A DNA stretch of 64,000 nucleotides from an uncultured Candidatus Actinomarina sp. (lineage in GTDB: Bacteria; Actinomycetota; Acidimicrobiia; Actinomarinales; Actinomarinaceae), in NCBI GenBank assembly GCA_902587025.1, contig CACIJJ010000002.1:23473-87472 (forward strand), written 5' to 3'. Below the pieces are notes generated by a model. The model did no database searches. It saw nothing but the letters and a program-made list of their open reading frames with translations, and had not been told where the DNA came from. The position numbers and the translations under genes were made by a program. Positions 3,643-57,708 of the stretch are shown piece by piece; positions within the stretch are counted from its first letter, which is position 1, and the number at the start of each line of letters is the position of its first letter.

Positions 3643-6138
3643 ATGAATCAAGTTAAAAAAAATAACATTTTTATTTTTTTAATAATATTTGTTGTAACTT
3701 TCATTCTCTTCTTATTTTTTAATTTATTTGATCAAAAAAATAATTTAGAAATTAATAAATTAGAAGAAAATATGTGTAAATATCACCATTCATCACTACT
3801 CAAAGAAAATTTTTCAGACACTTCAGTAGTTTTAGATATTCAATATAAAAGTAAAGGACTCTCCGTTTTTCCAGATTTAAAAAACATACTATGTGTCGGA
3901 AAAGTCATAGATTATGAGATTAATTTTTATGAGGAGGTTGGCAATTTAACTTATGTAAAACTTAATTTATATGTATTTACTCATGAAAGAATAATTAACC
4001 TATTAAAAATTTTCTTATTAATATTTATAGTTTATTTCCCAAAACTTCCATTAATTAATGACTCTTTTAGCAAAAATAATAAAATCGTCATTCTTGTATT
4101 TTTTTTACTTTTAATAAACCTAATTTTTAGTCTCAAATTTTCGATTGTTAATTTAATTATTGATATTATTTTTTACTCAACTCTGACAATATTTTTTGGA
4201 TCTGATAGTAAAAGATTTGATTTAGTAAACAAGAAACATAATATTTCCATCGATAGCCTCAGGGCTGTTGCAGTATTAGCAGTAATTTTTAATCACTTTG
4301 GATTTAAGTCTTTCGCAAGTGGCTATTTAGGTGTAGATTTATTTTTTGTTATATCTGGATATGTAATTACTAAAAAATATATACATATTAAAAATGATTC
4401 TTCTTTAAGCTTTTACGCAGAGTTTGTCTTTTTTAGATTAAAAAGAATTATTCCTAATCTAATATTTTTCATTACAATCACTTCAATTTTTGTATACCTT
4501 TTAGATTACAACTATAAAAATACACTTATCGGGGCACTTTTTGCTGTATTTGCAATTTCAAATATTTACTTTTACGTAAATTCACTTGATTATTTTTCAA
4601 TAGACTCTTCATTAAATTCATTTACCCATACATGGTCACTTGGAGTCGAAGAACAATTTTATTTAATTTTCCCTTTTCTAATTTATGCATTTGCAAGAAA
4701 TAAAATAAAAAAATCTTATTTTTTAATTCCTACTCTTTTATCTGTATTTTTGTTTTATTCAAGCACCACTACAAGTCCAAGTGCTACTTATTACTTAATA
4801 CAATATAGATTTTGGCAAATAGCATTAGGTTGCCTCTTAATAATATATAGTTTTGAATTAAAAAAATTAGCAAATCTAATACCAGTAAATGCTTTTTTAA
4901 TACCATTAATATTAGTTTTTACAATAAATACATCATATTCACGAAATTTAACATTGATATCAACCCTATTATTTGCGTTAATTATTTTAGGTATTGGAAA
5001 CTCTGACCAAAAGAGTAAAGTTCTAGAATCACCAAAACTAGCAACAATAGGTGTGTTGTCATATTCCCTATATTTATGGCATTGGCCAGTAATTAGTTTA
5101 TCTAAATGGACAAATTTTAAATTTATGACTTTTGAACTTCAGATGTTATTAATTATTACTCTTTCACTACTTTCTTTTAAATTCATAGAACAACCCTTTA
5201 GAAACATATCAATTGATAAGAGAAAAAAATATTTATTAATTCTATTTTCAACTACATTTTTGGTTTGGGTGTCTGTTTTTTCAATTACTAAATTTACAGA
5301 TAGAGACAATACATTGTCTGGAAACAATCCATACGTATTCGAGAAAAAAGATTACAAAAATATAGTAAATGAAATAGATTGCTATCACCCGAATGACATA
5401 GATAATGCTTTCGAGTCATGTATGGTTTATAAAAATGAAAAAGTAAATGTTTATCTGATTGGAGATAGTCATTCAACAAACCATTTTATTAGTTTAGAGC
5501 AAAACTTTAGAAATCAAGAAAATTATAACTTTAACCACTTAGTTGAGTGGGGGTTTATTAGAGATATCCAAGGGATTAAAGGTTGTGCACCAAGTCAAAA
5601 ATGCATTGAAAATAGTTTTGAAAAGCACTTAAATTTTTTTAGAGAAAACTTAGATAAAAATGATATTGTAATTTTTTCTTTTTCAAGAGATTGGTTCAAA
5701 ATAGATGGAGATTTACCCAGAAAAAATATAAATTCAAAGTTAACAAATTTTGAAAATAATTTTTCTAACTTAATTCAAACAATTAAAAACACTAACGCAA
5801 AAATCATCCTTTTAGATGACATACCTAAAACATGTAGCTCAAATGTAAATTTTTATAACGACATTATTGTGAAAGGCAATATCGATTCTTGTACGGTGTC
5901 AGAGGCTGTATCAATCAAAGATAGAAAAGAGCTCACAGATTTATATTCTAAATTTTTAGATGAAAATACAATTTACCTAGATCCTCACAAGGACTTCTGT
6001 AATGACGGCTTTTGTTCAATAATTGACTTAAAAACAAATGAAATAATGTTTTCAGATCTTTCGCCACATATATCGAAAAATGGACTAAAAATTATGGATG
6101 AATTTTGGAAAAAAAATTTTTACACATTAACTAAATGA
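3643..6138 (+). CDS. OafA-like O-acyltransferase (acyltransferase-3 membrane domain + C-terminal SGNH hydrolase domain) with ~200-aa N-terminal extension
   Basis: Acyltransferase-3 signature LRAVAVLAVIFNHFG...GYLGVDLFFVISGYVI, multiple TM segments, and a C-terminal GDSHS (SGNH) motif in YLIGDSHSTNHF. 831 aa. Confidence 0.7.
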   Translation: MNQVKKNNIFIFLIIFVVTFILFLFFNLFDQKNNLEINKLEENMCKYHHSSLLKENFSDTSVVLDIQYKSKGLSVFPDLKNILCVGKVIDYEINFYEEVGNLTYVKLNLYVFTHERIINLLKIFLLIFIVYFPKLPLINDSFSKNNKIVILVFFLLLINLIFSLKFSIVNLIIDIIFYSTLTIFFGSDSKRFDLVNKKHNISIDSLRAVAVLAVIFNHFGFKSFASGYLGVDLFFVISGYVITKKYIHIKNDSSLSFYAEFVFFRLKRIIPNLIFFITITSIFVYLLDYNYKNTLIGALFAVFAISNIYFYVNSLDYFSIDSSLNSFTHTWSLGVEEQFYLIFPFLIYAFARNKIKKSYFLIPTLLSVFLFYSSTTTSPSATYYLIQYRFWQIALGCLLIIYSFELKKLANLIPVNAFLIPLILVFTINTSYSRNLTLISTLLFALIILGIGNSDQKSKVLESPKLATIGVLSYSLYLWHWPVISLSKWTNFKFMTFELQMLLIITLSLLSFKFIEQPFRNISIDKRKKYLLILFSTTFLVWVSVFSITKFTDRDNTLSGNNPYVFEKKDYKNIVNEIDCYHPNDIDNAFESCMVYKNEKVNVYLIGDSHSTNHFISLEQNFRNQENYNFNHLVEWGFIRDIQGIKGCAPSQKCIENSFEKHLNFFRENLDKNDIVIFSFSRDWFKIDGDLPRKNINSKLTNFENNFSNLIQTIKNTNAKIILLDDIPKTCSSNVNFYNDIIVKGNIDSCTVSEAVSIKDRKELTDLYSKFLDENTIYLDPHKDFCNDGFCSIIDLKTNEIMFSDLSPHISKNGLKIMDEFWKKNFYTLTK

Positions 6139-7493
6139 AAAGATATGATTTAACATTATCAAAGTTAGTATTTGTTTTAATTAGTTTATCAAGCATCTAT
6201 GTCTTAATTTACAATATATTTCACTTTAACCCTATTTTAGGATACGACGCAGAAGCACATTACAGCTATGTAGACTTCCTATCTAGGTATCTACCAAATG
6301 ATATAAAACTACCAACTAAAAATGATACACGAGAATTTTTTAACCCACCTTTGGGCTATGTTGTACCAGCTATAGCACAAGTTTTATGTAGAAATATAAT
6401 TGAGTCAAACAACTTTTTAATTGAGTGCCAACCGATTTATGGAAAGGTAACCCAAATTTTTCAATCATTATTATATATTGCGACAATAATGATTAATTTG
6501 TATACATTGAAATTATTTAATAAATCAAATACATTCCTAAATACTGGGTATTTGATATTGATTTCACTTTTTGCTGTAAACTATAGAACTTTATCAATGA
6601 TAAGGGGTGAGCCATATATTTTATTCTTTTTAAGTTTATTTTTACTTGTAATATTTAAAGCTGAAAAAAATCATTTTCATTTCAATTTTAAATTTATTTT
6701 TTCAGCTGGGGTTGTAATTGCTTGTATTGCTTTAAGTAGACAATGGGGTTTTTTTCTATTTATTCCATTGATATATTTATTATTTCTTCAAAAACCAAAG
6801 AAACAATATTTTTTATTCTGGTTATATAGTTCTTTTTTGGGAGCTTTATTTTCTAGTTGGTTTTATATTGGGCTTTATCAAAAATATGGTTCATTTACAG
6901 CTTTTAATATGCAATCCGAGAGTTTTTCATTCGCAAATCAATCACGTCAATTTTACATCCCAACCTTTAATAATTTTCAATATTTGTTTACTAAACCAAT
7001 AAGGCCTAATTTAGATAATCAGTTTTTTTCAATATTATATTCAGATGTTTGGGGCGATTATTGGGGATATTTTGTTTTCACATCTAGGTTTATCGATATT
7101 GGCCGAAATCAAGAGTTAATCGGAGATTATTTAGCAAGGGTTAATTTAGTTTCTTTTTTTACTTCAACGTTAATAATATCCTTTTGTTTTATTGTTTTTC
7201 GGAAATATAAATCAAATTTTTTAATAAAGTATTTAAATTATGCAATAATATTTAGCTTGTTAGGATATCTTCTCTTCACAATTAATTATCCAACAACAAG
7301 TGGAGATACTATTAAATCTACATATATTATTCAAGTATTTCATTTAATGGCTTTTATGGCTTCTATTTATTTTTATAATTTAAAGAATACAAATCAAAGA
7401 ATCTATAACTTATTATTATCACTTTTGGTAATTATTTATTTCCACAACTTTGAGTCTTATTTATCCCACTATCCTTTTAATTTCCTTCCATAA
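6135..7493 (+). CDS. polytopic membrane protein, possible GT-C-type (ArnT/PMT-like) glycosyltransferase
   Basis: 452 aa with more than 10 hydrophobic segments. Start overlaps the upstream stop (ATGA). No diagnostic motif recognised. Confidence 0.4.
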   Translation: MKRYDLTLSKLVFVLISLSSIYVLIYNIFHFNPILGYDAEAHYSYVDFLSRYLPNDIKLPTKNDTREFFNPPLGYVVPAIAQVLCRNIIESNNFLIECQPIYGKVTQIFQSLLYIATIMINLYTLKLFNKSNTFLNTGYLILISLFAVNYRTLSMIRGEPYILFFLSLFLLVIFKAEKNHFHFNFKFIFSAGVVIACIALSRQWGFFLFIPLIYLLFLQKPKKQYFLFWLYSSFLGALFSSWFYIGLYQKYGSFTAFNMQSESFSFANQSRQFYIPTFNNFQYLFTKPIRPNLDNQFFSILYSDVWGDYWGYFVFTSRFIDIGRNQELIGDYLARVNLVSFFTSTLIISFCFIVFRKYKSNFLIKYLNYAIIFSLLGYLLFTINYPTTSGDTIKSTYIIQVFHLMAFMASIYFYNLKNTNQRIYNLLLSLLVIIYFHNFESYLSHYPFNFLP

Positions 7494-7556
7494 TTTAAAT
7501 TTAAAATATTTACTTGTATTAAATATCATTTAATTGTTTATCTATCATTGAGTTAA

Positions 7557-8522
7557 ATGAAAAAAATATTAATTACAGGCATCACAGGTCAGGACGGTTT
7601 ATTCTTATCAAAAAATTTAATGGAAGCCGATCCTAATACAAAAATTTTTGGGGTATCTAGAAAGGTAACTAACAATGGATTTAAAAAAAAATTAATAGAT
7701 TTAGGCGTAACAAATTTAGATAATTTTAAAATCTATAACATTGATTTACTTAATAAGACTAAAGTAAGAGAATTAATTAACACACTTCAACCAACATCGA
7801 TATTTAATTTAAGTGGACCAAGTTCTGTATATGAGTCTTTAACTCGTCCCAATGAGACATTCCTTGAGATTACTATGATATTTGACAATTTAATTGAAGC
7901 TATGTTCGAAGAAAATAATATTATTCCCTTTTTTCAAGCTTCTTCATCAGAAATGTATGGAAAAAATAATGAAACGGTTTTGAAAGAAGATTCAGAATTT
8001 GCACCACAATCAGCATACGCTAAAGCAAAGTTAGAAAACCATAATAAGGTAATTGAACTTTCAAAACAATTTAATATTAAGTCTGGAATAATGTTCAATC
8101 ATGAATCTGAATTTAGAACATCAAAATATTTATTCAAAAAAGTTATATTAGGTGCAAAAGAAATAAGTCAAAAAAAAACAAATAATCTAAAAATAGGAAG
8201 TCTAAAGTATGAACGAGACTGGACATTTGCTGGAGATGTTTCTAAAGCAATGATTAAGATTATAAATTTTGGTACTAAAAGTTCCTACATCATAGGGAGA
8301 GGACAATCGCATTCTATAGAATATCTGATTTCATTAGTTTTTAGCCATTTCAACTTAAACTGGAAAAAGTATGTTGAAGTTGATCCATCTTTATTAAGGG
8401 ATGGAGATCCTGAAAAAATTGCTTGCGACCCTTCAAGGTTGAACAAAGAGTTGAACTGGAAACCAGAGTATACTTTTGAAAACCTTGTAGAGAGATGTGT
8501 TTTAAAATCGATGGAAAGTTAA
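7557..8522 (+). CDS. GDP-mannose 4,6-dehydratase family protein (divergent second Gmd paralog, extended SDR)
   Basis: N-terminal ILITGITGQDG, catalytic SSSEMYG and YAKAK (YxxxK). 321 aa versus 344 aa for the canonical gmd at 25404. Confidence 0.55.
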   Translation: MKKILITGITGQDGLFLSKNLMEADPNTKIFGVSRKVTNNGFKKKLIDLGVTNLDNFKIYNIDLLNKTKVRELINTLQPTSIFNLSGPSSVYESLTRPNETFLEITMIFDNLIEAMFEENNIIPFFQASSSEMYGKNNETVLKEDSEFAPQSAYAKAKLENHNKVIELSKQFNIKSGIMFNHESEFRTSKYLFKKVILGAKEISQKKTNNLKIGSLKYERDWTFAGDVSKAMIKIINFGTKSSYIIGRGQSHSIEYLISLVFSHFNLNWKKYVEVDPSLLRDGDPEKIACDPSRLNKELNWKPEYTFENLVERCVLKSMES

Positions 8523-8635
8523 ATTAGAAATAAATATTATGAAAAATAAATTACTTTTTAATTTCGGAATTTAAACAAATAAAAATATTTTTAAATAAAA
8601 GGGTTAGAGAGTTTATTTTGTTAAATATTGTCAAA

Positions 8636-9367
8636 TTACCAAAATTTATGTGTTTTTATATATAGTTTTAAAATATTAAATCCCGATTCAATAATTATTC
8701 TGAAACTCATCTTTGATTTACCATTAGCTCTATCAATAAATGAAATAGGATACTCTAAAATTGAATTTTTGTTACTTATCACCAAACTTAAAATCTCAAC
8801 TAAAAACGAATATCCACTAGATTCAATATCTTTAAAATTAATTTCTTTTAAAATTTTTTGATCATACACTCTAAATCCAGATGTTAAATCATTTACATCT
8901 GTTCTTAGTACGTGCTTAGCAATTTTATTTGAGTATTTAGAAAGAATTCTTCTATGGTTTTTCCAACCAATTATTTCTCCACCTTTTACATATCTACTTC
9001 CAATTACCAAATCAGTTGTATCTTTGAGAATCATTTGACTCAAATCCTCTATACGATGAGATAAGTCAGCATCCATTTGAATTATTTTTGTATAGTTGTT
9101 TTTTAAAGCGTATTCGAAACCCTGTATCACTGCTTTTGCATAGCTTCTACTTTCTATCCTTCGAATCCCAAATAAATTATTATTAAATTGATTATGTTGC
9201 TGAATTAATTCAAAGGTTCCATCAGGAGAGCTGTCATCAACGACTAGTACATGTACTCCAATAGAAATAAGCTTATCGATTAAAGTTAAAATATTTTGAC
9301 TTTCGTTGAATGTTGGAATGACAGCTATTGCTTTATTATTAAGATTAGTCATATATATCCTAAACAT
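8636..9367 (-). CDS. GT2 glycosyltransferase, dolichyl/undecaprenyl-phosphate sugar synthase (DPM1/ArnC-like)
   Basis: IAVIPTFNESQNI, then VLVVDDSSPDGT, then MDADLSH (DxD). 243 aa. Confidence 0.75.
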   Translation of the reverse strand: MFRIYMTNLNNKAIAVIPTFNESQNILTLIDKLISIGVHVLVVDDSSPDGTFELIQQHNQFNNNLFGIRRIESRSYAKAVIQGFEYALKNNYTKIIQMDADLSHRIEDLSQMILKDTTDLVIGSRYVKGGEIIGWKNHRRILSKYSNKIAKHVLRTDVNDLTSGFRVYDQKILKEINFKDIESSGYSFLVEILSLVISNKNSILEYPISFIDRANGKSKMSFRIIIESGFNILKLYIKTHKFW

Positions 9368-10333: not shown

Positions 10334-11176
10334 ATGAAAAATATAATAAAAATAATCTTTAGATTTTTGGGTTTTGTTGTTTTAAGAAATGAAAAAAACA
10401 ATAAGATACTCAAATATGAATACATATCAAAGAATGTATTAAGAAAAATTCAAAATACGAATTTAACATATGCCCGCATTCCAGAGCTTGATTCTAATGA
10501 TGAACAAATAATTCAAGTTGTATTCGAAAATAATTTGACAATGGCATCAATAGATAGACTAATAGAAACACTTTTTTCAGTAAAACATGTCATCAAATCA
10601 AATATTAAGGGTGATTTTGTGGAGTGTGGTTCTTGGCGAGGTGGGAATGCTATTGCAGCACAATTAAAAATGTACAATCTTGGGGAAGCTAGAAAAATTT
10701 ATTTATATGACACATTTGTTGGAATGACTGAGCCAAACCCAGAGCTTGACAATAGTATTCACCAAGAAGACAGCGTACTAGATTTCTATGATTCAAATCA
10801 GGAAGATGAATACAACAAGTGGTGTTTTGCTTCTAAAGAAGAAGTAAAAAGCAATTTCACCAAATATGGAAGAGGTCTTAGTGGAGTACATCTAATTAAA
10901 GGAGATGTTAAGGAGACTCTCAAAATTGAGGAAAATTTACCTCAAGAAATTTCTATCCTAAGATTAGACACTGATTGGTATGAATCTACCTTACTAGAGT
11001 TAGAAGTGTTATACCCAAGGCTTGTTAAAGGAGGAATACTTCTTATTGATGATTATGGGTATTGGAAGGGAGCCGAATTGGCTGTAGAAGAATATTTCTC
11101 CAGACCATACACTCCTAATAAACCATTTCTTGCACGATCAGATAATTACGGAAGAGTATTAATAAAAAATGACTAA
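10334..11176 (+). CDS. TylF/MycF-family macrocin-O-methyltransferase-like sugar O-methyltransferase
   Basis: DFVECGSWRGGNAIA, then YLYDTFVGMTEP, then RLDTDWYEST, then LIDDYGYWKG, which are the family signature blocks. Confidence 0.75.
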   Translation: MKNIIKIIFRFLGFVVLRNEKNNKILKYEYISKNVLRKIQNTNLTYARIPELDSNDEQIIQVVFENNLTMASIDRLIETLFSVKHVIKSNIKGDFVECGSWRGGNAIAAQLKMYNLGEARKIYLYDTFVGMTEPNPELDNSIHQEDSVLDFYDSNQEDEYNKWCFASKEEVKSNFTKYGRGLSGVHLIKGDVKETLKIEENLPQEISILRLDTDWYESTLLELEVLYPRLVKGGILLIDDYGYWKGAELAVEEYFSRPYTPNKPFLARSDNYGRVLIKND

Positions 11177-11984
11177 TACAATAAAAAAAATTATTAAAAA
11201 AATATTAAACAATTCCAATAAATCTAATATTAATCTAGTTGATACGTTTCCCTCTTTCATTCCAAATAGTAAGGGAAGTTATAAATATCTTGAAAAAATA
11301 ATTGTACAAAATATTAATAATTCTATTAAAGCAATTAACAATTTGAAATCAAAAGAGATAAATTTTTATTTAAAAACATCAGATTTTCCAGATACAATTA
11401 ATGCTCAGGATTTGAAAGACTTACTTGATAATTCAGGTTCGGACAAAGCAAATCATCATGATTACCATAAAGTTTATAGCTACATAATTGAAGACATTCA
11501 AAATGTAAAAAATATATTAGAAATTGGTATAGGAACAACAAACCCAAACGTAGTCTCTAACATGGGTACTCACGGGAAACCCGGCGCATCATTGATTGCT
11601 TTTTCTGAATTTTTGCAAAATGCCAATATTTACGGTGCTGATATTGATAAGGAAATTTTATTTACAGAAAATAATATTAAGTGTTTTCATATTGATCAAT
11701 TAGATATTGAGACATTTAAAGTTTTAGAAAAAATTAAATTTGACCTAATCATAGATGACGGACTTCATGCACAAATAGCAAATCTAAATACGTTAAAATT
11801 TGCTATGGAAAATCTTTCAAAAGGGAGCTGGTTTGTAGTTGAAGATATTCCTGATTATTCCCTAGACACCTGGGAAATTGTCTGCAAGTTATTAAATGAA
11901 GAACATTTTGTACGAATAGTAAAATCTACAAAGTCTTTTTTATTTATTTGTAAAATTAAAAGTAAAGAGAAAAGTTTATTTTAA
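11169..11984 (+). CDS. class I SAM-dependent methyltransferase (paralog of 32824-33669)
   Basis: ILEIGIGTTNPNVVSNMGTHGKPGASLIAFSEF...GADIDKEILF...IIDDGLHA. Shares a long colinear block with the minus-strand ORF at 32824. Confidence 0.55.
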   Translation: MTNTIKKIIKKILNNSNKSNINLVDTFPSFIPNSKGSYKYLEKIIVQNINNSIKAINNLKSKEINFYLKTSDFPDTINAQDLKDLLDNSGSDKANHHDYHKVYSYIIEDIQNVKNILEIGIGTTNPNVVSNMGTHGKPGASLIAFSEFLQNANIYGADIDKEILFTENNIKCFHIDQLDIETFKVLEKIKFDLIIDDGLHAQIANLNTLKFAMENLSKGSWFVVEDIPDYSLDTWEIVCKLLNEEHFVRIVKSTKSFLFICKIKSKEKSLF

Positions 11985-35649: not shown

Positions 35650-36027
35650 ATGAAAAACATTACAAAATTTTCAGTTATTTCAATTTCTTCTTATTTAGCA
35701 ATTCAAAATAGTGAGTTTATCGATGTTGGGCAACTAATCGGTGATATTGAAAGGTTTTATACTTTTGAAAATTTACAATTGAGTTATATTTATTTTTTAA
35801 TAAGTATTTTAATCTCTTGCTTAACTTTGTATCTTATGTATTTCTTGAAGCCTTTTATTGAGATATATTTGTTGTATTATTTTAGATTCAGTTTTTATTT
35901 TCTGATTAATTTATTATCTATTTCAACAGTATTTATTATTTTAAGAATTTATGGATATTCAAGGCTAAATTTATTGATCTATTTAATTTTTTCATCCTTT
36001 GTTTTCACTTTTTTTGCAAGAAAGTAG
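35650..36027 (+). CDS. small hypothetical membrane protein
   Basis: 125 aa with 3-4 TM segments. Confidence 0.3.
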   Translation: MKNITKFSVISISSYLAIQNSEFIDVGQLIGDIERFYTFENLQLSYIYFLISILISCLTLYLMYFLKPFIEIYLLYYFRFSFYFLINLLSISTVFIILRIYGYSRLNLLIYLIFSSFVFTFFARK

Positions 36028-49955: not shown

Positions 49956-50641
49956 TCATTTTTATATTTTTTTCTAATTTTTACTAGATCTCTAAGCATT
50001 ACTATTGAGTCTTTAATTAATGAGACAGAAGAATTTCTATTAAAATTATATTTAATTGGTACTTCTTGTATTTCTAACCCTATTTCTTTACAAGCTTGAA
50101 TTAAATCTACATCAAAAGAAAACCCTGAAAAAGTTAACCGTTCTGAAATTTTTTGAATTTTATCGCTGTGTAAATATTTGAAACCACATTGTGTATCTTT
50201 GATATCTATATTAAACATTTTTCTTACTATAAAATTAAAAACTTTTCCGGCTAAAACCCTTCTAATTGGTGTATTAATCTCATTGCCTAGACTTCTTGAA
50301 CCAATTAATAAATGATAATTTTTTTTAGAAAGCCAATCAGGATTAAACTCTTTGATGTCTGTAGATAAATCTGCATCTAATATTAGAACTTTATCAAACT
50401 TACAATTTTGTAAGCCTTTTTTAACAGCTGCGCCCTTACCTTTTATGTATTCATTAAGTAACAACACGTATTGCGGATTAACTAAACTATGTATTTTCTC
50501 AACAGTGCTGTCTGTTGATTTATTATTTACTATTAATATCTCACCTTCGCATTTGTTTTCCAGCATCCATTCTTGAACTCTTTTAATACTATCGACAATT
50601 ATTTCTTCTTCGTTGAAGCAGGGTATAACTATACTTATCAT
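49940..50641 (-). CDS. GT2 glycosyltransferase, polyprenol-phosphate sugar synthase (DPM1/ArnC-like)
   Basis: ISIVIPCFNEEEII, then LIVNNKSTDST, then LILDADLS. Confidence 0.75.
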   Translation of the reverse strand: MISIVIPCFNEEEIIVDSIKRVQEWMLENKCEGEILIVNNKSTDSTVEKIHSLVNPQYVLLLNEYIKGKGAAVKKGLQNCKFDKVLILDADLSTDIKEFNPDWLSKKNYHLLIGSRSLGNEINTPIRRVLAGKVFNFIVRKMFNIDIKDTQCGFKYLHSDKIQKISERLTFSGFSFDVDLIQACKEIGLEIQEVPIKYNFNRNSSVSLIKDSIVMLRDLVKIRKKYKNDYLPR

Positions 50642-50763
50642 TAATACTTTAATTTAAAACTTTGTTCAAAAACAGAAACTATTGTCGGATATATTCATGA
50701 ACAATTATTACACAAAATAAAAATTTAAATAAAAGTAGTGAAGTTTTTTTATAAATTTATTTT

Positions 50764-50807
50764 GTAGGCGCTATAGGATTTGAACCTTTGACTTCTTTTT
50801 TGTAAGG
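50764..50807 (-). repeat. degenerate att-like copy 3 of tRNA-Val 3' half
   Basis: gtaggcgctataggatttgaacctttgacttcttttttgtaagg has about 5 mismatches to tRNA-Val 55281-55324. It is followed by a degenerate agaaccatt...tttatgagttcattgat stretch resembling the long flank repeat. Confidence 0.6.
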
Positions 50808-50900
50808 ATAGAACCATTGACACCAGACTAACTTTATGAGTTCATTGATGTTTGTGATAACGACCCAATACTGAAAGTTTATTTTAACTTTGTGTGTCTT

Positions 50901-51030
50901 TTTTCTATATATATGTAAAGATTTTTGTACAAAATCAGCCAAAGTGCCAATTTTTCTATATATATGAAAAGATTTTTGTACAAAATCAGCCAAAGTGCCA
51001 ATTTTTCTATATATATGTAAAGATTTCTCA
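50901..51030. repeat. ~51-bp tandem repeat, about 2.5 copies
   Basis: ttttctatatatatgtaaagatttttgtacaaaatcagccaaagtgccaat appears at 50901-50951 and 50952-51002, with a partial third copy running into att copy 2. Confidence 0.8.
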
Positions 51031-51220
51031 AAAAACTCTTATGAGCGCTACAGGATTTGAACCTGTGACTTCTTCCTTGTAAGGAAAGAACCATTAAATA
51101 CTAGGTAGTATCAGAAAGTATCAGTTTATAGAGTCAATGAACTTAAGCTTACACAAAAAGATATCAGAGGCTATCAGAGAGTATCTACAGTTTTAGAAAA
51201 TTTTGGTGTCTTTTAGGTGT
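51008..51220. repeat. ~215-bp direct repeat, copy A (att plus flanks, TATCAGA motifs, GTGTCTTTT doublet)
   Basis: About 90% identical to 51798-52003. Contains tatatatgtaaagatttct, the tRNA-Val 3' half, aaagaaccattaaatactaggtagta, 5 TATCAG(A) motifs, and ggtgtcttttaggtgtctttt. Confidence 0.8.
51046..51084 (-). repeat. att-like copy 2 of tRNA-Val 3' half (exact)
   Basis: gcgctacaggatttgaacctgtgacttcttccttgtaagg matches 55285-55324 exactly. Confidence 0.9.
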
Positions 51221-51734
51221 CTTTTATAATTTTTTGTGCCTGAGATCTCACAGCTTTTCTTTCATCATTCTTTAACTGTCTTGCGATACTTATAACATTT
51301 GACTTCAATATTTCGTCTGAATTGGATAATTTTTCTAGAAGTTTTAAACCTTGAGCAAGTATCATCCAGTCTTTACTATTTTCCACCCAACTCATTGCAT
51401 TTTTACTAATAACTTTGTATTCTTTATCGTCAAAATATGAAATGAAATCATAATAAATTGTAATAAGCCCAAGTTTGACTACATTATGTTCAGACTCTGA
51501 AAACTCATCTATGAATCTTTTTTTATTTTCAACAAAAATTTGATTATTACCTTTTATTATTCTTTTTGTTGCATTCATAGCTCTCATTGCAACTAAAGAA
51601 TTGTTAGAAAAAAAACATAAGAATAATTTATCAATTTCTTTTATATTATTTTGAATATGTTCTACTACTTTTAATGTCTCTCCAAGTGAGTTTTGTTTTC
51701 CTTTGCTTAACTCAAATTCAAAATCTAATTCCAT
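51213..51734 (-). CDS. hypothetical protein (alpha-helical, HEAT/ARM-like?), cassette cargo
   Basis: 173-aa ORF flanked on both sides by the roughly 215-bp direct repeats. No recognisable motif. Confidence 0.4.
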   Translation of the reverse strand: MELDFEFELSKGKQNSLGETLKVVEHIQNNIKEIDKLFLCFFSNNSLVAMRAMNATKRIIKGNNQIFVENKKRFIDEFSESEHNVVKLGLITIYYDFISYFDDKEYKVISKNAMSWVENSKDWMILAQGLKLLEKLSNSDEILKSNVISIARQLKNDERKAVRSQAQKIIKDT

Positions 51735-51797
51735 AACTAAATGTATATTACCAAATGAAACTCTACAGAGGTGGTGTCTTCTAGGTGTCTTTTGGGT

Positions 51798-52003
51798 ATA
51801 TATATAAAGATTTCTGATAAACCCTTGTGGGCGCTACAGGATTTGAACCTGTGACTTCTTCCTTGTAAGGAAAGAACCATTAAATACTAGGTAGTACCAG
51901 AGAGTATCAATTTATAGAGTCAATGAACTTAAGCTCTTACAAAAAGATATCAGAAGTTATCAGATAGTGTCTACAGTTATAGAAAATTTGTGTGTCTTTT
52001 GTG
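51798..52003. repeat. ~215-bp direct repeat, copy B
   Basis: tatatataaagatttctgataaacccttgtg, then an exact tRNA-Val 3' half (51828-51870), then aaagaaccattaaatactaggtagtaccagagagtatcaatttatagagtcaatgaactt...tgtgtgtcttttgtgtgtcttt. Confidence 0.8.
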
Positions 52004-52049
52004 TGTCTTTTTATTTTCATACATTATTGCTAGCTATTAATATTTAGAT

Positions 52050-52361
52050 ATGTTCATAAAAAAGAAATCAAAAAAGTTAAAAGTAGAATTTAAAAATATA
52101 CAGACCGATCTTTTAAAAATTAATAAGAAGATTTGTGATCTTTACCAAAAAGTAAATCATCTTAACCTAGAAGAGTTGAGAGAAGAGATAAAAGATTTAC
52201 TAGAGTTTTCAGAAATACAAATAATTAATGAACACAAAGGTTACGATAATTGCTTTACAACATCAAATGGTAAGGAAAATATAATCAATAGGCCAGCTTT
52301 TGTTGATAAATATGGAAATTGTCTTGTACAGGGCTACAGAGAAGTAAAAGAAAAAATCTAA
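52050..52361 (+). CDS. hypothetical small protein, first gene of Hsp70-like operon
   Basis: 103 aa, Lys-rich. Stop lies 5 nt before the ATG of the next gene. Confidence 0.4.
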   Translation: MFIKKKSKKLKVEFKNIQTDLLKINKKICDLYQKVNHLNLEELREEIKDLLEFSEIQIINEHKGYDNCFTTSNGKENIINRPAFVDKYGNCLVQGYREVKEKI

Positions 52362-52366
52362 CTTTA

Positions 52367-54619
52367 ATGAGCAAACAGGCTTTAGGTTTTGATTTTGGTA
52401 CTACTAACTGTACTGTGTCAATTTTTGATAGTGAAGAAGGAATTGCAAAAACACTTCCTATCTCAAATTTTTCAGAGTCAAAGAAAAAGAGTTTAGCTAA
52501 TCAATCATTATTTCCATCAAAAGTTGGTCTTAATAATGATTTTGAATATGTATTTGGTGATGATACAAAAAAATGTGAGCGAGATTTTGTATGGGACAAT
52601 TCCAAAAGATTACTAGAACACAACACTCCAATTTATAGGGGAGGAGTTCATAAAAAACCTATCTGGGTTGCAATAGGTATCATTGCTGGAGTTTTTAAGG
52701 AATTAAAAAATTTATCGATAAAAACTTCATCACCTATGGTAATTACGGTTCCTGCAAACTCTTATAGTGTGCAAAGAAGTCTTACTAGATTAGCTGCTGA
52801 AGCATTTAACTTTAATGTAGATCAATTAGTTTCTGAACCATGCGCAGCAGCTTTAGGTTGTTTCAACTACATTAAAAACTTAAAACATATTTTGATAGTT
52901 GATGTAGGAGGTGGAACAACAGATATTGCTTTATTAGAAAATGATTTTGGGACCTTAAAAGAGATTGAAATTGAAGGCTTGAAAAGATTTGGTGGAATAA
53001 ATATTGATCAAAAACTATTCGACACTTATAAATACGAAGTTGAATTATCGACTGATTCAGAAACATTACTCTTTAGAGATTTACTGGAAGACGTAAAAAT
53101 AGAACTATCAACTAAAAAGAAATCTAAGTTAATTTTTAAAGATCAGGTAATCGAAATTACTAGAGATAGTATTGAAAAATTAATAGAAAAAGATATTGAA
53201 AATTTAGATAAAACTATTGATAGAGTACTTAAAAAGGGAAATGTCGAAGTAAAAAATATAGAGGCTGTTTTACCTATTGGAGGCTCATCTAATATTCCTG
53301 CAATAAGAAATCTTTTGAAAAAAAAGTTTAAATCCAGGTTTATTAATCTTAATTTTGAAGAATCAATAACTGCTGTTGCAAATGGAGCAGCAACAGCTTC
53401 AGCCATAAATGCAAAAATTATTGATAATCTAAGTTTTAAACAGTGTCTAGAACATAGTGTTGGCCTTAGGGTGTGGAGCGGCACTAAAGAAAATAAGATT
53501 TTTAAAGCAATACTTGAAAAAGGATCAGTATTTCCAGCATCAGCAGTAGAAACATTTATCTCGGATACAGATGAATCTGTAGTTGCTTTGTATGAAAGTA
53601 CTTCAGGTAAATTAAAAAATAATGATACAAAATTAATTATTGAAAAAAGAATAAAAACTGGTGTTATGCATGTTGATGTTGAGCTCACCTATGATGACGA
53701 TGGAAAAATAGATATTAAGACATACAACATAAATAAAGGAGAACGTGGAAAATTAGGAGACTTGGGAGACAGTACTGAGGATTCTCAAGGGTATATAAAG
53801 AATTTGCAATCAAAATCTCGTAAGCAAGGAATGGATTTAAAAATTGACAATATAAATTACATAGATTCACAATTAACCCAAAAAAAATTAAAAGAATGGT
53901 CGAATGAGTTTTTAGGGAAGTATAAAAAATATAAAAAAGTATCAAAAAAAGTTAAAAATATATTCAAAAAAGAATTTAAAGATGAATTTGTTTCAATTAA
54001 TAAGGAAAATATTTCTGAAGCAATATTTAAAGTGAGAACAGAACTCGATTTTGGTAGTACTAATGATGCATTTATGTTCGCAAGAGGTATTTTGAAACAT
54101 TCTTTAAGGGTGGTGTTTAATATTGCAGGTTATGAAAAACTTCATCACTTTCAAAGTATTCATAAATTATTAGGAGAAAGAGACGTTGTGTATCAAACAA
54201 CACAGAAGCTTTTACCAGAACAACCTCTTGAAGATATTAGGTGGTTAATAAAAGTTCTTCAGAAATCTAGATATTTAAAGAACTTAGGACACACAAATAC
54301 TCAAGAAGTTAGAGACAGTCTTGAATCATTAAGAACAATCTTAAATAAATTTAGTCATGGTGTTCGTTCAAGTTTTTTTGGATTATTTACAGATTCATTA
54401 GATGAATACGATTCTTCAATTGAAAGTAACATACTAAATGCTGTTTATAAAGAATCTAAATATACACCCCAGGATGTTGTCCTACTGGCCTCTAACGTAG
54501 TCTATTTATTAACTTCTCTAATTAATACAGAAGAATATAAGGGAAAAGATAGAGAAAATCTTATGAAAATGCTAGAAAGTATGCTTGCTTTAGAACAGAC
54601 ATATAAAGATGATTTTTAA
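52367..54619 (+). CDS. atypical Hsp70-family ATPase (DnaK-like NBD + SBD-beta-like region + ~290-aa unique alpha-helical C-terminal domain)
   Basis: LGFDFGTTNCTVSIF (phosphate-1), ILIVDVGGGTTDIALL (phosphate-2), VLPIGGSSNIPAIRNLL (adenosine). No EEVD. The C-terminal half is unrelated to the DnaK lid. The track ORF starts at 52319, but the internal ATG at 52367 follows the upstream stop. Confidence 0.65.
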   Translation: MSKQALGFDFGTTNCTVSIFDSEEGIAKTLPISNFSESKKKSLANQSLFPSKVGLNNDFEYVFGDDTKKCERDFVWDNSKRLLEHNTPIYRGGVHKKPIWVAIGIIAGVFKELKNLSIKTSSPMVITVPANSYSVQRSLTRLAAEAFNFNVDQLVSEPCAAALGCFNYIKNLKHILIVDVGGGTTDIALLENDFGTLKEIEIEGLKRFGGINIDQKLFDTYKYEVELSTDSETLLFRDLLEDVKIELSTKKKSKLIFKDQVIEITRDSIEKLIEKDIENLDKTIDRVLKKGNVEVKNIEAVLPIGGSSNIPAIRNLLKKKFKSRFINLNFEESITAVANGAATASAINAKIIDNLSFKQCLEHSVGLRVWSGTKENKIFKAILEKGSVFPASAVETFISDTDESVVALYESTSGKLKNNDTKLIIEKRIKTGVMHVDVELTYDDDGKIDIKTYNINKGERGKLGDLGDSTEDSQGYIKNLQSKSRKQGMDLKIDNINYIDSQLTQKKLKEWSNEFLGKYKKYKKVSKKVKNIFKKEFKDEFVSINKENISEAIFKVRTELDFGSTNDAFMFARGILKHSLRVVFNIAGYEKLHHFQSIHKLLGERDVVYQTTQKLLPEQPLEDIRWLIKVLQKSRYLKNLGHTNTQEVRDSLESLRTILNKFSHGVRSSFFGLFTDSLDEYDSSIESNILNAVYKESKYTPQDVVLLASNVVYLLTSLINTEEYKGKDRENLMKMLESMLALEQTYKDDF

Positions 54620-55196
54620 AAAAAGAAAAATTCAAAAAATTATTTCACTTCACAAAGATGAGATAGCTGATTTAGAAGATGAATATAGGGAAAAACTAAA
54701 ACTTTTGAAAATTGAGGCTGATAATCATTTGGATAAAGAAATTACCAAATATAAAGAAAAATTAGCAAAAGAACAGAATCAAAAAGCTGATTCTGAAAAG
54801 CAAAAGCTACAAACTAAACATGATAAAGAAATCAAACATTTGATCAACGAATATGAAAAACAAAAAATCTTAGAACTTGAAAAGTTAGAAAAAAAATTTC
54901 GAGACTCTGATGTTTTCACAAAGAAGTTACAAAAGTATTTTTCTGATGAACTTGGCAGAGAGTATCAAGATGTTTCATTTAAAGAGCTTGAAGAAGATTT
55001 GAAAAATGATTTAAAAGAGATTGTATATGAAATTAACGATTTAAATAAGCAAGTTGATGATAGCAAGGATAAACTTTTACAATTTAATGAACTTGCTAAA
55101 GAAATAAATTATTTAGAAGAAGAAATAGGAATTAAACGTAATGAACTTTATGAAATCAAGCAGGCAATCAAAGAACTAAAAAAAGAAGGTAATTAA
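54609..55196 (+). CDS. coiled-coil protein (Lys/Glu-rich), third gene of Hsp70-like operon
   Basis: 195 aa with heptad-like KE-rich repeats throughout. Overlaps the preceding gene by 11 nt. Confidence 0.45.
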   Translation: MIFKKRKIQKIISLHKDEIADLEDEYREKLKLLKIEADNHLDKEITKYKEKLAKEQNQKADSEKQKLQTKHDKEIKHLINEYEKQKILELEKLEKKFRDSDVFTKKLQKYFSDELGREYQDVSFKELEEDLKNDLKEIVYEINDLNKQVDDSKDKLLQFNELAKEINYLEEEIGIKRNELYEIKQAIKELKKEGN

Positions 55197-55220
55197 TTTT
55201 TGCATATTCAAAAAGTAATT

Positions 55221-55279
55221 TGTGTGTCTTTTGTGTGTCTTTTTACTATATATATGTAAAGATTTCTGAAAAACCCTTG
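55221..55279. repeat. conserved tRNA-Val 3' flank (GTGTCTTTT doublet + tatatatgtaaagatttctgaaaaacccttgtg)
   Basis: Same sequence module that precedes each att copy at 51775-51827 and, less well, at 51008-51045. Confidence 0.7.
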
Positions 55280-55353
55280 TGGGCGCTACAGGATTTGAAC
55301 CTGTGACTTCTTCCTTGTAAGGGAAGCGCTCTGCCAGACTGAGCTAAGCGCCC
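55280..55353 (-). tRNA. tRNA-Val (anticodon TAC)
   Basis: The reverse complement folds as GGGCGCT-TA-GCTC-AGTCTGGCA-GAGC-G-CTTCC-CTTACAA-GGAAG-AAGTC-ACAGG-TTCAAAT-CCTGT-AGCGCCC-A. Confidence 0.85.
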
Positions 55354-55368
55354 CAATTACAAATAATA

Positions 55369-57006
55369 TTAGTCTTTAAAAATAACATATGAAAAATAAT
55401 TATCTTTTAAAACATTTTTATTTCTTACGCAATCTAAATTAATCCAACACTGATCACCAACCTCAGGCAGAACACCGTATCCAAAAGAGTTGGTGATATA
55501 GTTAATTTGCTGTGGTTTGATATCAACTATTTTTAGATTATTAAAATTTTCAAGAAGAACAAAATAATTATTTAGTTGTGGAACAAGTCCCACAACTACC
55601 AAGTAGAAGGTAATAATACTTTTATAATATTTTTTTTTGAGACTATTTTTTCTGTCTCCTTTGAAAATGCTAGATAAAAATAATACAAACATTAGAAATA
55701 TACCAATTCCCATCCTTATCCCAGGTGCTGAAACAATCCAAACTAAAAAGCTAAAAGCTGTATAAACAAAAGTTACAGCTAAATATACATCTTTCTGTTC
55801 TTTAAAAATTTTTTGAGTTATTATCAATAAAAGCAAAATTGCAAATATTGTCAAAGAATAGTTTTTTATAACTACTGAATTTATATCTTTTGAAAGCCAA
55901 AGCTCCGGCCAATTAAAAAAATTATTTTTGTTGAGTGCTATGTGAAAATTTTTTAAAACATCAGATTCAACCCCAGCTTTTGAGTACCCACTTTGAGATG
56001 ACCATTTAAAATAATTAAAACATGAAATCTTTACTGGATATATTAAGCAACTAGAAGTGATTAAATTTTTTATAAGAAAAGAAAATCCAAAAAAAATAAG
56101 TAATAGTGAGTTATTTAAAAAATAAGTAAAAGTTTGATAAAGCTTGTACTTATACAATACAACTATTAGAAATGCCAAAAACGCAATAGCACCTAAGATT
56201 CTCATTTGAGTTGCAAATAGAGTTAAAGTAAACAATAAATTAATTTCAGAATTTTTTGGTGGAAATTTATCTTCTTTTAAATAGCAAATTAAGAAAAAGC
56301 TTGAAATTATAAATAAAATTGCAAATGGACTGTCTTGTTTTCCTATAGCTTCAATTTCTATAAACCCATTTTTACCACCTCCGAAACCAAAATTATCTAA
56401 AAATCCATAAATTAGAACCGCATATCCAAATTTATAGTGATTAGTAAAAAGAAGTAAATATATAAACTGGAAAAAAACAACTATAAATATTATGTTTACA
56501 AAATGTAAGATTAGAAAATTATTGTCTAACCAAAAGTTTGCATTTATATATTCAATTATTGAGGAATAGCCATAACGCATATGGTTATTTGCTAATCCAA
56601 AAACAATTTTCGAGCTTCTTAACCAATTTTGATGATTTAAATGATAAAGCCCAGCATCATAAGCTAGATTTGTATTTAAAGAGCTAATACCTAAAATTAC
56701 AGGAGTAGCAATATATAGAATTAAATTATTTAATTTAAACGATTGCTTATTTAAATTATCAAATTTCTTGAGGTTATATACAACTGGAATTAATGTAATG
56801 AAAACTAAAAATAAGGAATTTATGTTGTAAAAAAAGTTGTATATAACAGAAAAATTTCCGATAAAAAACAACCCTATAATGGGATAAAAAATATTGCTTT
56901 TAATACCAAAATAGTCCCTAGCTTCATATTTAAAGAGATAAAAATAACCACGACCTACAAAATATATATAGAAATAAAAAATTAAAAATAAAAATATTGT
57001 TATCAT
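55369..57006 (-). CDS. polytopic membrane protein, possible GT-C-type glycosyltransferase
   Basis: 545 aa with more than 12 TM segments. Divergent from, and 9 nt away from, a DPM1-like GT2. Confidence 0.45.
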   Translation of the reverse strand: MITIFLFLIFYFYIYFVGRGYFYLFKYEARDYFGIKSNIFYPIIGLFFIGNFSVIYNFFYNINSLFLVFITLIPVVYNLKKFDNLNKQSFKLNNLILYIATPVILGISSLNTNLAYDAGLYHLNHQNWLRSSKIVFGLANNHMRYGYSSIIEYINANFWLDNNFLILHFVNIIFIVVFFQFIYLLLFTNHYKFGYAVLIYGFLDNFGFGGGKNGFIEIEAIGKQDSPFAILFIISSFFLICYLKEDKFPPKNSEINLLFTLTLFATQMRILGAIAFLAFLIVVLYKYKLYQTFTYFLNNSLLLIFFGFSFLIKNLITSSCLIYPVKISCFNYFKWSSQSGYSKAGVESDVLKNFHIALNKNNFFNWPELWLSKDINSVVIKNYSLTIFAILLLLIITQKIFKEQKDVYLAVTFVYTAFSFLVWIVSAPGIRMGIGIFLMFVLFLSSIFKGDRKNSLKKKYYKSIITFYLVVVGLVPQLNNYFVLLENFNNLKIVDIKPQQINYITNSFGYGVLPEVGDQCWINLDCVRNKNVLKDNYFSYVIFKD

Positions 57007-57015
57007 CTAATTTAA

Positions 57016-57708
57016 ATGTATACGTTAGACGTAATTGTACCATTTTTTAATGAAGAAGTTTTCCTCAAAGAGTCTGTTGGTAGGTTGTTAAAAACTAGTA
57101 TTCATACAAATATATATTTAGTTGACAATAATTCTGATGATAATTCTCCAGAAATTGCAAAAAAATTATCAAAAGACAGAGAAGATGTTCATTATGTAAA
57201 AACACCAGAAGTGTCTGGTAAGGGATTTGGAATACAAACAGTAATGCCATATTTAAAATCGTCTCATGTTGTGATCCACGATGCAGACCTTGAATACTTT
57301 CCAGAAGATATTATTGAAATGTTTGATTTAGCAAAACAAAATCAAAAATCTTTAATTCTAGGTTCACGATTTATTGGATCAAAAATAAGACAAAATATCT
57401 ATTTGAGAACATTTATAGCAAATAGAGTTATGTCATTATTTTTTTCTTTAGTAAATTTTTACAGAATTTCAGATGTAGCATCATGTTATAAATTGATGCC
57501 CGTAGAGTTTCTAAAAAATATAGACCTTAAAGAAAAGGGATTTTCAATAGAGATTGAACTACTCTCCAAATTTTTAAAATTCAACAGATCTGTTTTAGAA
57601 GTACCTATTTCATATGAAGGCAGATCATATGCAGATGGAAAAAAGATAAAAGCAACAGATGGGTTACAGTATTTGTTTAATACAATTAAATACAGGTTTA
57701 TAAATTAA
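57016..57708 (+). CDS. GT2 glycosyltransferase, polyprenol-phosphate sugar synthase (DPM1/ArnC-like)
   Basis: LDVIVPFFNEEVFL, then YLVDNNSDDNS, then HDADLEY. Confidence 0.75.
   Translation: MYTLDVIVPFFNEEVFLKESVGRLLKTSIHTNIYLVDNNSDDNSPEIAKKLSKDREDVHYVKTPEVSGKGFGIQTVMPYLKSSHVVIHDADLEYFPEDIIEMFDLAKQNQKSLILGSRFIGSKIRQNIYLRTFIANRVMSLFFSLVNFYRISDVASCYKLMPVEFLKNIDLKEKGFSIEIELLSKFLKFNRSVLEVPISYEGRSYADGKKIKATDGLQYLFNTIKYRFIN

Follow-up and report, generated by a model that had tools for sequence, protein, structure and literature searches.

The window, meaning the whole 64,000-nucleotide (nt) stretch of DNA considered here, is nearly the entire flexible "glycotype" island fGI1 of a Candidatus Actinomarina-like actinobacterium, and this island probably carries four modules of a known multicomponent pathway for transmembrane glycosylation. 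Each module would combine a small family 2 glycosyltransferase (GT2_1 to GT2_4) with a large polytopic membrane protein (M1 to M4), and one of them includes a candidate flippase (F2). In the proposed scheme, a GT2 of the DPM1/GtrB/ArnC type would transfer one sugar from a nucleotide sugar to polyprenyl phosphate at the cytoplasmic face of the membrane, the lipid-linked sugar would be flipped to the outer face, and the polytopic transferase would attach it as a side branch to a previously exported envelope polymer or protein. An earlier note on this DNA had proposed four such pairs. The nine open reading frames (ORFs) that it listed are all present: GT2_1, of 243 amino acids (aa), at 8636-9367 on the minus strand, with M1 (452 aa; 6135-7493, plus); GT2_2 (324 aa; 31004-31978, minus) with M2 (523 aa; 29446-31017, minus) and F2 (279 aa; 31992-32831, minus); GT2_3 (233 aa; 49940-50641, minus) with M3 (564 aa; 48261-49955, plus); and GT2_4 (230 aa; 57016-57708, plus) with M4 (545 aa; 55369-57006, minus). 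The same note had spoken of "periplasmic" chemistry, but since no outer membrane is expected in the Actinomarina group (PMC7771536), the term should read "extracytoplasmic."

What identifies the island? Lopez-Perez et al. (2020; PMC7771536) describe a single, order-wide flexible island, fGI1, in Candidatus Actinomarinales that carries genes for cell envelope polysaccharides, is 43 to 79 kb in size, and has a GC content of ~28%. Five tRNAs serve as insertion targets, and the inserted cassettes are bounded by direct repeats of tRNA fragments. The envelope itself is uncharacterized, with an outer membrane unlikely and no mycolic-acid envelope expected (PMC7771536). The window fits this description: its position and synteny, low GC content, tRNA targets with fragment repeats, and envelope-glycan genes all match, and its location and size agree with the description in the same source. 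The island runs from a tRNA-Phe gene (195-268) to nrdJ, or roughly from 0.2 to 57.7 kb (~57 kb), at ~26% GC and with tRNA-fragment repeats at both ends; the GC content is 25 to 29% up to ~57 kb versus 34 to 37% inside nrdJ. Its genes encode GT4, GT2, GT8, GT25, GT61, and GT47-like enzymes (GT4, GT8, GT25, and GT61 in numbers, together with many sugar-nucleotide genes), as well as a Wzy_C protein, an ABC exporter, an AT3-SGNH acyltransferase, and methyltransferases. A scan of a genome collection with M4 relatives returned solely Candidatus Actinomarina/OCS155 contigs. In one of them, the metagenome-assembled genome AH-321-L10 of Candidatus Actinomarina (L007; L-numbers denote contigs or loci of relatives, and M1h to M4h denote relatives of M1 to M4), nrdJ has the identical length and scores 2463 bits against that of the window, three genes on its far side match the window as well, and an M4 relative directly adjoins it. 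With nrdJ matching these contigs, two earlier candidates for the source of the window, SAR11 HVR2 and a Prochlorococcus island, were discarded.

The four GT2s are probably all closest to polyprenyl-phosphate sugar synthases (PfDPMS, ArnC, GtrB, PpgS, AglJ, and PgfS), GT2_2 being the least clear, which agrees with the DPM1/GtrB-like character first ascribed to them. Each matches PF00535, at E values on the order of 1e-17 to 1e-23 (1.2e-23, 1e-21, 1.6e-17, and 2.4e-23 for GT2_1 to GT2_4, respectively), and each has a DxD motif, either the DAD typical of DPM1 or DGD, within residues 89-101 (MDADLSH at position 99 in GT2_1; LDADLS at 89, HDADLE at 89, and IDGDNQ at 90 among the others). The best match in the Protein Data Bank (PDB) for three of them is the Pyrococcus dolichol-phosphate mannose synthase PfDPMS (5mlz): GT2_1 at 1.5e-27 over residues 12-232, followed by ArnC and GtrB; GT2_3 at 5.9e-9 over residues 2-205, followed by ArnC and GtrB (sll0501); and GT2_4 at 5.3e-13 over residues 4-221, followed by ArnC and with no match to GtrB. 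The best-scoring NCBIfam models are PpgS for GT2_1 (69 bits) and GT2_2 (51 bits) and AglJ for GT2_3 (59 bits) and GT2_4 (85 bits), with PgfS and a dolichyl-phosphate hexose transferase among the other top models. GT2_2 has the architecture of GtrB, with two C-terminal transmembrane (TM) helices at 251-269 and 282-300. GT2_1 (DPM1/PpgS-like), GT2_3 (DPM1-like), and GT2_4 (DPM1/AglJ-like, and found beside nrdJ in many relatives) are TM-less and resemble DPM1, PpgS, and GacI, not GtrB. Ten GT2s that adjoin M-family genes in relatives are all of the same synthase class, and the GT2_2 orthologue in L012 (313 bits) has PpgS, AglJ, and PgfS as its top scores.

For two of the membrane partners, structural models place the proteins among the GT-C enzymes. 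AlphaFold (AF2) models of M2 (pLDDT 92.2, pTM 0.93) and M3 (pLDDT 85.3, pTM 0.77) have a GT-C fold that is far from every solved family, and M3 has an extra N-terminal domain predicted to be extracytoplasmic. A Foldseek search of the PDB with M2 gave ArnT (5f15, E of 3e-3), AglB, ALG12, ALG3, STT3, Pmt4, ALG9, and PglB at probabilities of 0.96 to 1.0, and Emb too, while matches outside GT-C reached at most 0.14. M3 gave ArnT (5f15, E of 1.9e-5), 5ezm, ALG3, ALG9, ALG6, ALG12, STT3, and AftB, with transporters below 0.1; nothing significant was found for M3 among viral structures. All PDB matches of either protein at a probability of at least 0.8 are GT-C enzymes, users of lipid-linked donors. 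A fold check of this kind had been proposed in the earlier note, with transporters as the refuting outcome; GT-C enzymes are the only credible matches, and transporters and receptors stay below a probability of 0.15. Homologues of M2 and M3 are diverse, are 40 to 50% identical, and come from marine metagenomes; PF03901 (family GT22) is found in 1 of 120 M2 homologues (P0223).

The conserved residues fit this fold assignment. In M2, D23, R25, C32, C33, D35, D36, D38, Y39, and H42 are invariant just after TM1, those from D35 onward lying in the helix that follows it. In M3, the invariant F154, D156, E157, and Y158 lie at the start of a helix that follows a TM helix, which is itself preceded by a lysine-rich (cytoplasmic) loop. 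In the models, the invariant acidic residues of both proteins would sit at the positions expected for GT-C catalytic residues. An acidic motif near the N terminus, in a loop predicted to be extracytoplasmic, is common to all four M proteins (Y37-D38..H42 in M1, D35-D36-x-D38-Y39 in M2, D156-E157-Y158 in M3, and D117..Y121-H122 in M4); its outer-side placement comes from the positive-inside rule and AF2 helices. The M proteins were first described as having more than 10 TM segments, a count that depends on how it is made: 12 or 13 hydrophobic segments per protein are found at a lenient Kyte-Doolittle threshold and 5 to 10 at a strict one. At the sequence level, no pairwise similarity was detected among M1 to M4. 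They have no match to a GT-C family in Pfam (also at E values of up to 10) or NCBIfam, the only NCBIfam match being that of M4 to LIC_10190, and single-sequence and profile searches against PDB sequences gave only chance matches.

Are the synthases and the membrane proteins truly paired? Three of the four proposed pairs are adjacent genes. GT2_2 and M2 lie on the same strand and overlap by 14 bp, with F2 13 bp upstream; GT2_3 and M3 are convergent and overlap by 16 bp; GT2_4 and M4 are divergent, with a gap of 9 bp. The remaining pair does not hold up in this form: GT2_1 and M1 are 1.1 kb apart on opposite strands, with a gene for an NAD-dependent sugar-nucleotide dehydratase/epimerase (7557-8522, plus; PF16363, 1.1e-66) between them. 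Among 58 genes, three GT2-M adjacencies compare with 0.55 expected (permutation P = 0.0098), and an M gene within two genes of all four GT2s has a permutation P of 0.0034.

The co-occurrence of the pairs across genomes, which the earlier note had asked about, is borne out for the three adjacent ones. In M2 relatives, a GT2 of GtrB size overlaps the start of M2h, and a PF03706 protein completes a trio with the gene order PF03706-GT2-M2h or GT2-M2h-PF03706; an M2 relative on a contig from Acidimicrobiia has its GT2 in divergent orientation. The convergent, overlapping layout of GT2_3 and M3 recurs in L021-24, L028, L033, L035, and L043. In two contexts unrelated to each other (L017 1702-3039 and L021 2159-3751), genes for GMC-family FAD oxidoreductases immediately precede M3 relatives, an arrangement that recalls, by analogy, the oxidation of lipid-linked sugars by DprE1-type enzymes.

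M4 relatives offer the largest comparison, with 86 loci that form 60 clusters at 90% identity, 51 of them informative. Of these 51 clusters, 31 have a DPM1-like GT2 directly next to M4h (61%, where gene density would give ~14%), and in 40 such a GT2 lies no more than two genes away. M4 relatives of at least 45% identity keep the order nrdJ-GT2_4-M4, often followed directly by GT2_3/M3. Among more distant ones, the arrangements are GT2_4-M2-like-M4h, nrdJ-M4h lacking a neighboring GT2, or operons of the order UDP-GlcNAc 2-epimerase-GT2-M4h, in which the epimerase matches PF02350 at 1.7e-70. By cluster, nrdJ-GT2_4-M4h occurs ~21 times and GT2_4-M2-like-M4h ~9 times, while L021/24 have GT2_4-M1-like-nrdJ. 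The epimerase operons, which are co-directional and occur in many relatives (for example, L059 2210-5641 and L065 1033-4425, with a 235-aa DPM1-like GT2), may be read as a full donor-to-transfer pathway, and their gene content points to N-acetylmannosamine or a derivative as the likely lipid-linked sugar in those lineages. In L030 (201-5653), L032, and L100, GT2_4 heads a co-oriented run of genes for an NDP-hexose 2,3-dehydratase, a GFO-type oxidoreductase, and a DegT aminotransferase. By its resemblance to an arn operon, this run hints at an amino-deoxy sugar donor.

For M1, the comparison leads away from GT2_1. M1 relatives that have a partner have a synthase of the GT2_4 type, overlapping upstream in L003-5 and convergent beside nrdJ in L021/24. 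The block M1-epimerase-GT2_1 is kept solely in a relative whose M1 is 96% identical (L109/L110), where the GT2_1 orthologue is retained. The relatives thus suggest a GT2_4-type synthase as the enzyme feeding M1, and proximity suggests GT2_1; because M1 relatives pair with GT2_4-type synthases, the assignment of GT2_1 to M1 is doubtful. Upstream, the gene for the AT3-SGNH acyltransferase (3643-6138, 831 aa) shares 4 bp with the start of M1. In L109 it is replaced by a 213-aa ORF (4363-5004) that matches only part of it; the acyltransferase therefore varies, or has decayed, among closely related strains.

Several results weigh against the presence of four complete modules, and the first of them concern the synthases. 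The four GT2s reach none of the cutoffs of the NCBIfam equivalogs (PpgS, AglJ, ArnC, and PgfS), scoring 51 to 85 bits where the cutoffs are 325 to 529. GT2_2 is the weakest case, since its first PDB match is an uncharacterized glycosyltransferase (6p61) and PfDPMS comes second, at 9e-7 over residues 2-180. For GT2_1, GT2_3, and GT2_4, no TM segments were predicted and no membrane-anchor partner was found. Could the small GT2s simply be ordinary cytoplasmic enzymes that extend a repeat unit linked to lipid-PP, with their position beside membrane proteins a coincidence? NCBIfam scores so far below the cutoffs, scores to PgaC, TuaG, and other GT2 models that are not synthases, and a best PDB match of GT2_2 that is not a lipid-phosphate synthase all speak for this explanation. 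However, the solved matches of GT2_1, GT2_3, and GT2_4 are nearly all DPMS, ArnC, or GtrB, the exception being one weak match of GT2_4 to an unrelated glycosyltransferase (3bcv), and the match to DPMS is near full-length, extending past the GT-A core. Moreover, the two further GT2s of the window (20271-20987 and 45256-46215) have no polytopic proteins of unknown family beside them, and the pairing is kept across many relatives. Taken together, these points make the coincidental arrangement highly improbable.

A second group of points concerns the membrane proteins. The Foldseek matches of M2 and M3 have TM-scores of just 0.3 to 0.44, and the best E value for M2 is the 3e-3 given above. The GT2_3/M3 layout is missing in one lineage, and some M3 and M4 relatives have no nearby GT2. 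Fold support is confined to M2 and M3, the two partners for which the proposed GT-C nature stands; for M1 and M4, sequence and profile comparisons gave no GT-C match, and neither has a match in Pfam or among PDB sequences. Profile-profile comparison with hhalign does little to help, with P values for M1 and M4 of 0.002 to 0.01 that are barely better than those of the controls.

M1 and M4 are nonetheless plausible GT-C-like transferases, judged from their topology, an invariant extracytoplasmic Asp motif, and their gene neighborhood. M1, with ~12 hydrophobic segments and no Pfam, NCBIfam, or PDB match, belongs to a family that is very common in marine metagenomes (relatives 58 to 96% identical) and has G36-Y37-D38, H42, Y45, and a C85/C98 pair invariant after TM1 (motif GYDxxxH). 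The M4 motif YDAGLYH lies in a predicted outside loop and includes D117, Y121, and H122, each invariant or almost invariant; four Cys residues of M4 are also invariant, and conserved Cys pairs occur in both M1 and M4. M4 scores 84.9 bits, against a cutoff of 100, to NCBIfam NF047510 ("LIC_10190 family membrane protein"), a family of undefined function on which a literature search found nothing. A Pfam scan of 75 M4 relatives gave zero matches, and an exact look-up of the M4 sequence returned no record.

One or both of these proteins might not be GT-C enzymes but another kind of polytopic envelope protein (a flippase, a Wzy-like polymerase or ligase, or a partner that binds the acceptor or anchors a TM-less GT2) that stands beside GT2 genes simply because the island is packed with glycan genes. 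The failed Pfam and PDB sequence searches, the hhalign values near those of controls, and the likeness of M4 to LIC_10190 only speak for this reading, and TM-less GT-A enzymes are known to require a membrane partner (PMC8035078). The 12 or 13 TM segments and the invariant Asp/Tyr/His motif in a predicted outside loop argue the other way, as do the 61% GT2 adjacency (~14% expected) and the epimerase-GT2-M4h operons. A polymerase role in particular finds no echo in the comparison of M4 with Wzy (hhalign P = 0.35), and the window already encodes a distinct Wzy_C protein as well as an ABC exporter. How much do the hhalign negatives count? Across the four M families and the polytopic families of relatives, the best M-to-M P values were 0.0016 to 0.0036, versus 0.011 to 0.013 for AT3, Wzy, and ABC controls. 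M2 and M3, both GT-C by fold, score only 0.099 to 0.32 against each other, and so the negatives for M1 and M4 are uninformative. We regard a non-GT-C identity for M1 or M4 as unlikely.

Other polytopic proteins are found nearby and in related islands. A 500-aa protein (11985-13487, plus) with ~12 TM segments, a Cys-rich C-terminal domain, and no Pfam match has the motif YIDYNVIYPP after its second hydrophobic segment and lies downstream of M1 also in L109; it may be a fifth GT-C-like candidate, with no DPM1-like GT2 adjacent. The related island L111 encodes a bona fide GT-C protein of the Pfam family PMT_2 (PF13231) at 6214-7845 and, beside an M1 relative, two GT2s of GtrB size and two more unannotated polytopic proteins of 481 to 545 aa. 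From their gene content, Actinomarina-related islands are predicted to hold many GT-C-type families.

The third group of points concerns the flippase. GT2_2, M2, and F2 had initially been taken for a complete GtrA/B/C-like layout, which does not survive: F2, with 279 aa, ~8 TM segments, and no PF04138 match, is not GtrA in size or family (GtrA has ~120 to 150 aa and 3 or 4 TM segments) and was rejected as such. No ORF of at least 100 aa in the window matches PF04138, the GtrA family, and F2 matches no flippase or other family in Pfam, even at E values of up to 10. What, then, might flip the lipid-linked sugar? In relatives, PF03706 proteins share the cluster of GT2 and M2, upstream of the GT2 in L012, as F2 is, and downstream of M2h in L105 and L108. 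The L012 protein scores 33.7 bits against a gathering threshold of 33.4, and the other two pass as well. F2 aligns with a profile of these three neighbors in a co-linear but weak manner (conditional E of 0.0023, 3.3 bits; BLASTP E of 0.64) and has both hallmark motifs, LGK-YVPFKI and SPAGIGIRE, in common with them. F2 is possibly a divergent UPF0104/PF03706 protein (LPG_synthase_TM, MprF flippase-like), and its position upstream of GT2_2 would suit a lipid-sugar flippase. PF03706 domains have been proposed as general lipid translocators, and a neighborhood of GT2, UPF0104, and PMT/STT3-like proteins was already predicted in archaea (PMC5898192). A contig scan found no F2 relatives in viral contigs.

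A second small membrane protein, of 125 aa and 3 or 4 TM segments (35650-36027, plus), has no Pfam match and no support as a GtrA protein; its homologues lie beside M2, M3, and M4 relatives in L008, L012, L062, L073, and L101. Speculatively, this protein could act as a small flippase or serve the TM-less GT2s as a membrane partner. The operon of GT2_2 and M2 also includes, immediately upstream of F2, the gene for a protein (32824-33669) that is paralogous to another in the window (11169-11984); the two, of 271 and 281 aa, are 34% identical, and the one at 11169-11984 weakly matches a methyltransferase model.

How do the modules compare with systems already described? Several GT-A/GT-C pairs per genome, mutually dissimilar GT-C partners, TM-less GT-A enzymes, and flippases other than GtrA are each documented elsewhere (PMC8035078, PMC11127046, PMC5898192). 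The closest parallels are the three-component systems, namely, GtrA/GtrB/GtrC of Shigella and Salmonella, CsbB/GtcA/YfhO together with GtlA/GtlB of Firmicutes, and csdAB, csdCD, and csdEF of L. lactis (PMC8035078, PMC11127046). Like these, the window has a GT2 lipid-phosphate sugar synthase adjoining a GT-C-fold transferase, several such pairs per genome, GT-C partners that have scarcely any sequence in common, and a presumed role in surface-glycan diversification. In contrast to these systems, it has no flippase of the GtrA family, the C-terminal TM helices seen in GtrB and CsbB are missing from three of its four synthases, and none of its GT-C partners falls in a Pfam family, be it PMT_2, YfhO, or the GtrC type. 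The host differs as well, being a streamlined marine actinobacterium with an uncharacterized envelope, and the modules lie in a tRNA-targeted cassette island.

The ArnC/ArnT pair, an undecaprenyl-phosphate-L-Ara4FN synthase with its GT-C transferase, is similar in that M2 and M3 both find their best structural match in ArnT, GT2_1, GT2_3, and GT2_4 count ArnC among their best solved relatives, and GT2_4 heads the arn-like runs of some relatives. However, M2 and M3 are only 9 to 14% identical to ArnT, at a TM-score of ~0.4, the GT2s score 20 to 36 bits to the NCBIfam ArnC model (cutoff 529), and the organism has no lipid A. The actinobacterial systems, in which Ppm1 or PpgS supplies GT-C enzymes such as PimE, Pmt, Rv3779, and Emb/Aft, come from the same phylum and follow the same logic; PpgS tops the NCBIfam list for GT2_1 and GT2_2, and Emb and AftB are among the fold matches of M2 and M3. 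Here too there are differences, since GT2_1 and GT2_2 reach 51 to 69 bits against a PpgS cutoff of 370, the M proteins are much smaller than Emb and AftD, and no mycolic-acid envelope is expected in the Actinomarinales (PMC7771536). Lastly, the archaeal neighborhood of an AglD-like GT2, UPF0104 (pfam03706), and a PMT/STT3-like protein (Makarova et al. 2015, PMC5898192) resembles the trio of a GT2, a PF03706 protein, and a GT-C-like enzyme that is found with M2 relatives and, by position, in the window too; the window, however, is bacterial, its proteins are separate rather than fused, and F2 falls below any PF03706 threshold. Particular to the present case are the host and the island, the partners with no Pfam family, the association with PF03706, and an apparent swapping of partners beside a conserved GT2_4 at nrdJ.

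The same comparisons bear on the acceptor. A variant of the scheme, in which only the acceptor differs, would have the modules glycosylate proteins, in the manner of PMT- or PgfM-like O-glycosylation, rather than polysaccharide. Actinobacteria O-mannosylate proteins via Ppm1 and Pmt; PgfS and AglJ, two synthases from pathways of protein glycosylation, are models to which the partner GT2s score well; and Pmt4 and oligosaccharyltransferase subunits are among the fold matches. Set against this are the best fold match, ArnT, which modifies lipids and glycans, and the setting of the genes, an island of the polysaccharide type that also encodes Wzy_C, an ABC exporter, many GT4, GT8, GT25, and GT61 enzymes, and sugar-nucleotide enzymes. 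Protein rather than polysaccharide as the acceptor seems improbable. The sugars and acceptors, as well as the payoff, which would be surface-glycan diversification under phage pressure, we infer.

Another class of features in the window records how the island is assembled. Genes for tRNA-Asp and tRNA-Phe lie at 115-268. The left border (195-3581, plus) consists of tRNA-Phe (195-268) and, after it, three direct repeats of its 3' 41 nt (1028-1068, 1715-1755, and 3541-3581). Each repeat closes a small cassette, with DUF2231, an HhH-GPD glycosylase, and an O-methyltransferase plus a 272-aa ORF, respectively. An 80-nt "tRNA-Phe" that ARAGORN reports at 987-1066 is not a gene and corresponds to one of these repeat fragments. 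Toward the right, a tRNA-Val gene (55279-55353, minus; ARAGORN and Rfam) is an insertion target between the M3/GT2_3 and M4/GT2_4 modules, and three direct-repeat copies of its 3' part (50762-50818, 51039-51095, and 51825-51881, minus) mark successive cassette insertions, in agreement with the mechanism given for fGI1 in PMC7771536. These repeats (50762-55353) bracket nonglycan cassettes that encode a 173-aa ORF, a 103-aa ORF, a 766-aa divergent Hsp70-like protein with a weak match to the candidate defense model PDC-M61B (1.7e-5), and a 195-aa coiled-coil protein; a 51-bp tandem repeat in about three copies (50900-51052) lies between the first two tRNA-Val fragments. The conserved right flank is nrdJ, encoding a class II ribonucleotide reductase of 1130 aa (57705-61097, minus; Pfam).

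The location of the M4 module bears on its membership in the island. The earlier note had set this fourth pair outside, next to nrdJ, but it lies between the tRNA-Val hotspot and nrdJ and, in relatives, directly abuts the GT2_3/M3 pair. Because relatives keep the two modules side by side, the stretch from 50.6 to 55.3 kb of the window is an insertion between them. Beyond the Actinomarina contigs, a contig labeled Candidatus Marinimicrobia at NCBI (L012-L015, GCA_002694025.1 and Tara contigs) carries genes that score 290 to 427 bits to eight window genes, in a partly rearranged order, which suggests either misbinning or lateral transfer of an island segment.

A bolder extension, which we hold tentatively and put somewhat short of an even chance, is that M1, M4, and further unannotated polytopic families of related islands are unrecognized GT-C families and that the end of the island near nrdJ works as a plug-and-play array. 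GT2_4 would stay fixed while tRNA-targeted exchange of cassettes places one or another unrelated GT-C enzyme (M4, M2-like, or M1-like) next to it. The same activated sugar would then reach different acceptors or be joined in different linkages, and the flipping would fall to MprF-like PF03706 proteins instead of GtrA. In the available part of the published account of fGI1, annotation is at the level of KEGG categories and the synthase/GT-C modules are not mentioned (PMC7771536). Masking of phage receptors, proposed in the earlier note and shared with the published view of the island, would be a reasonable purpose for the modules.

Overall, Actinomarinales are among the smallest free-living cells and are abundant in the surface ocean, and their envelope chemistry is uncharacterized. 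The modules lead to the prediction that much of their strain-level surface diversity would be made outside the membrane from lipid-linked single sugars, by at least two and probably four GT-C enzymes. The gain is two or more GT-C families that have no Pfam model, with candidate catalytic residues, now linked to the described tRNA-cassette dynamics of the island. The mechanism itself is textbook, and the value lies not in new concepts but in annotation and in ecology, that is, in phage-host interaction and the diversity of glycotypes.

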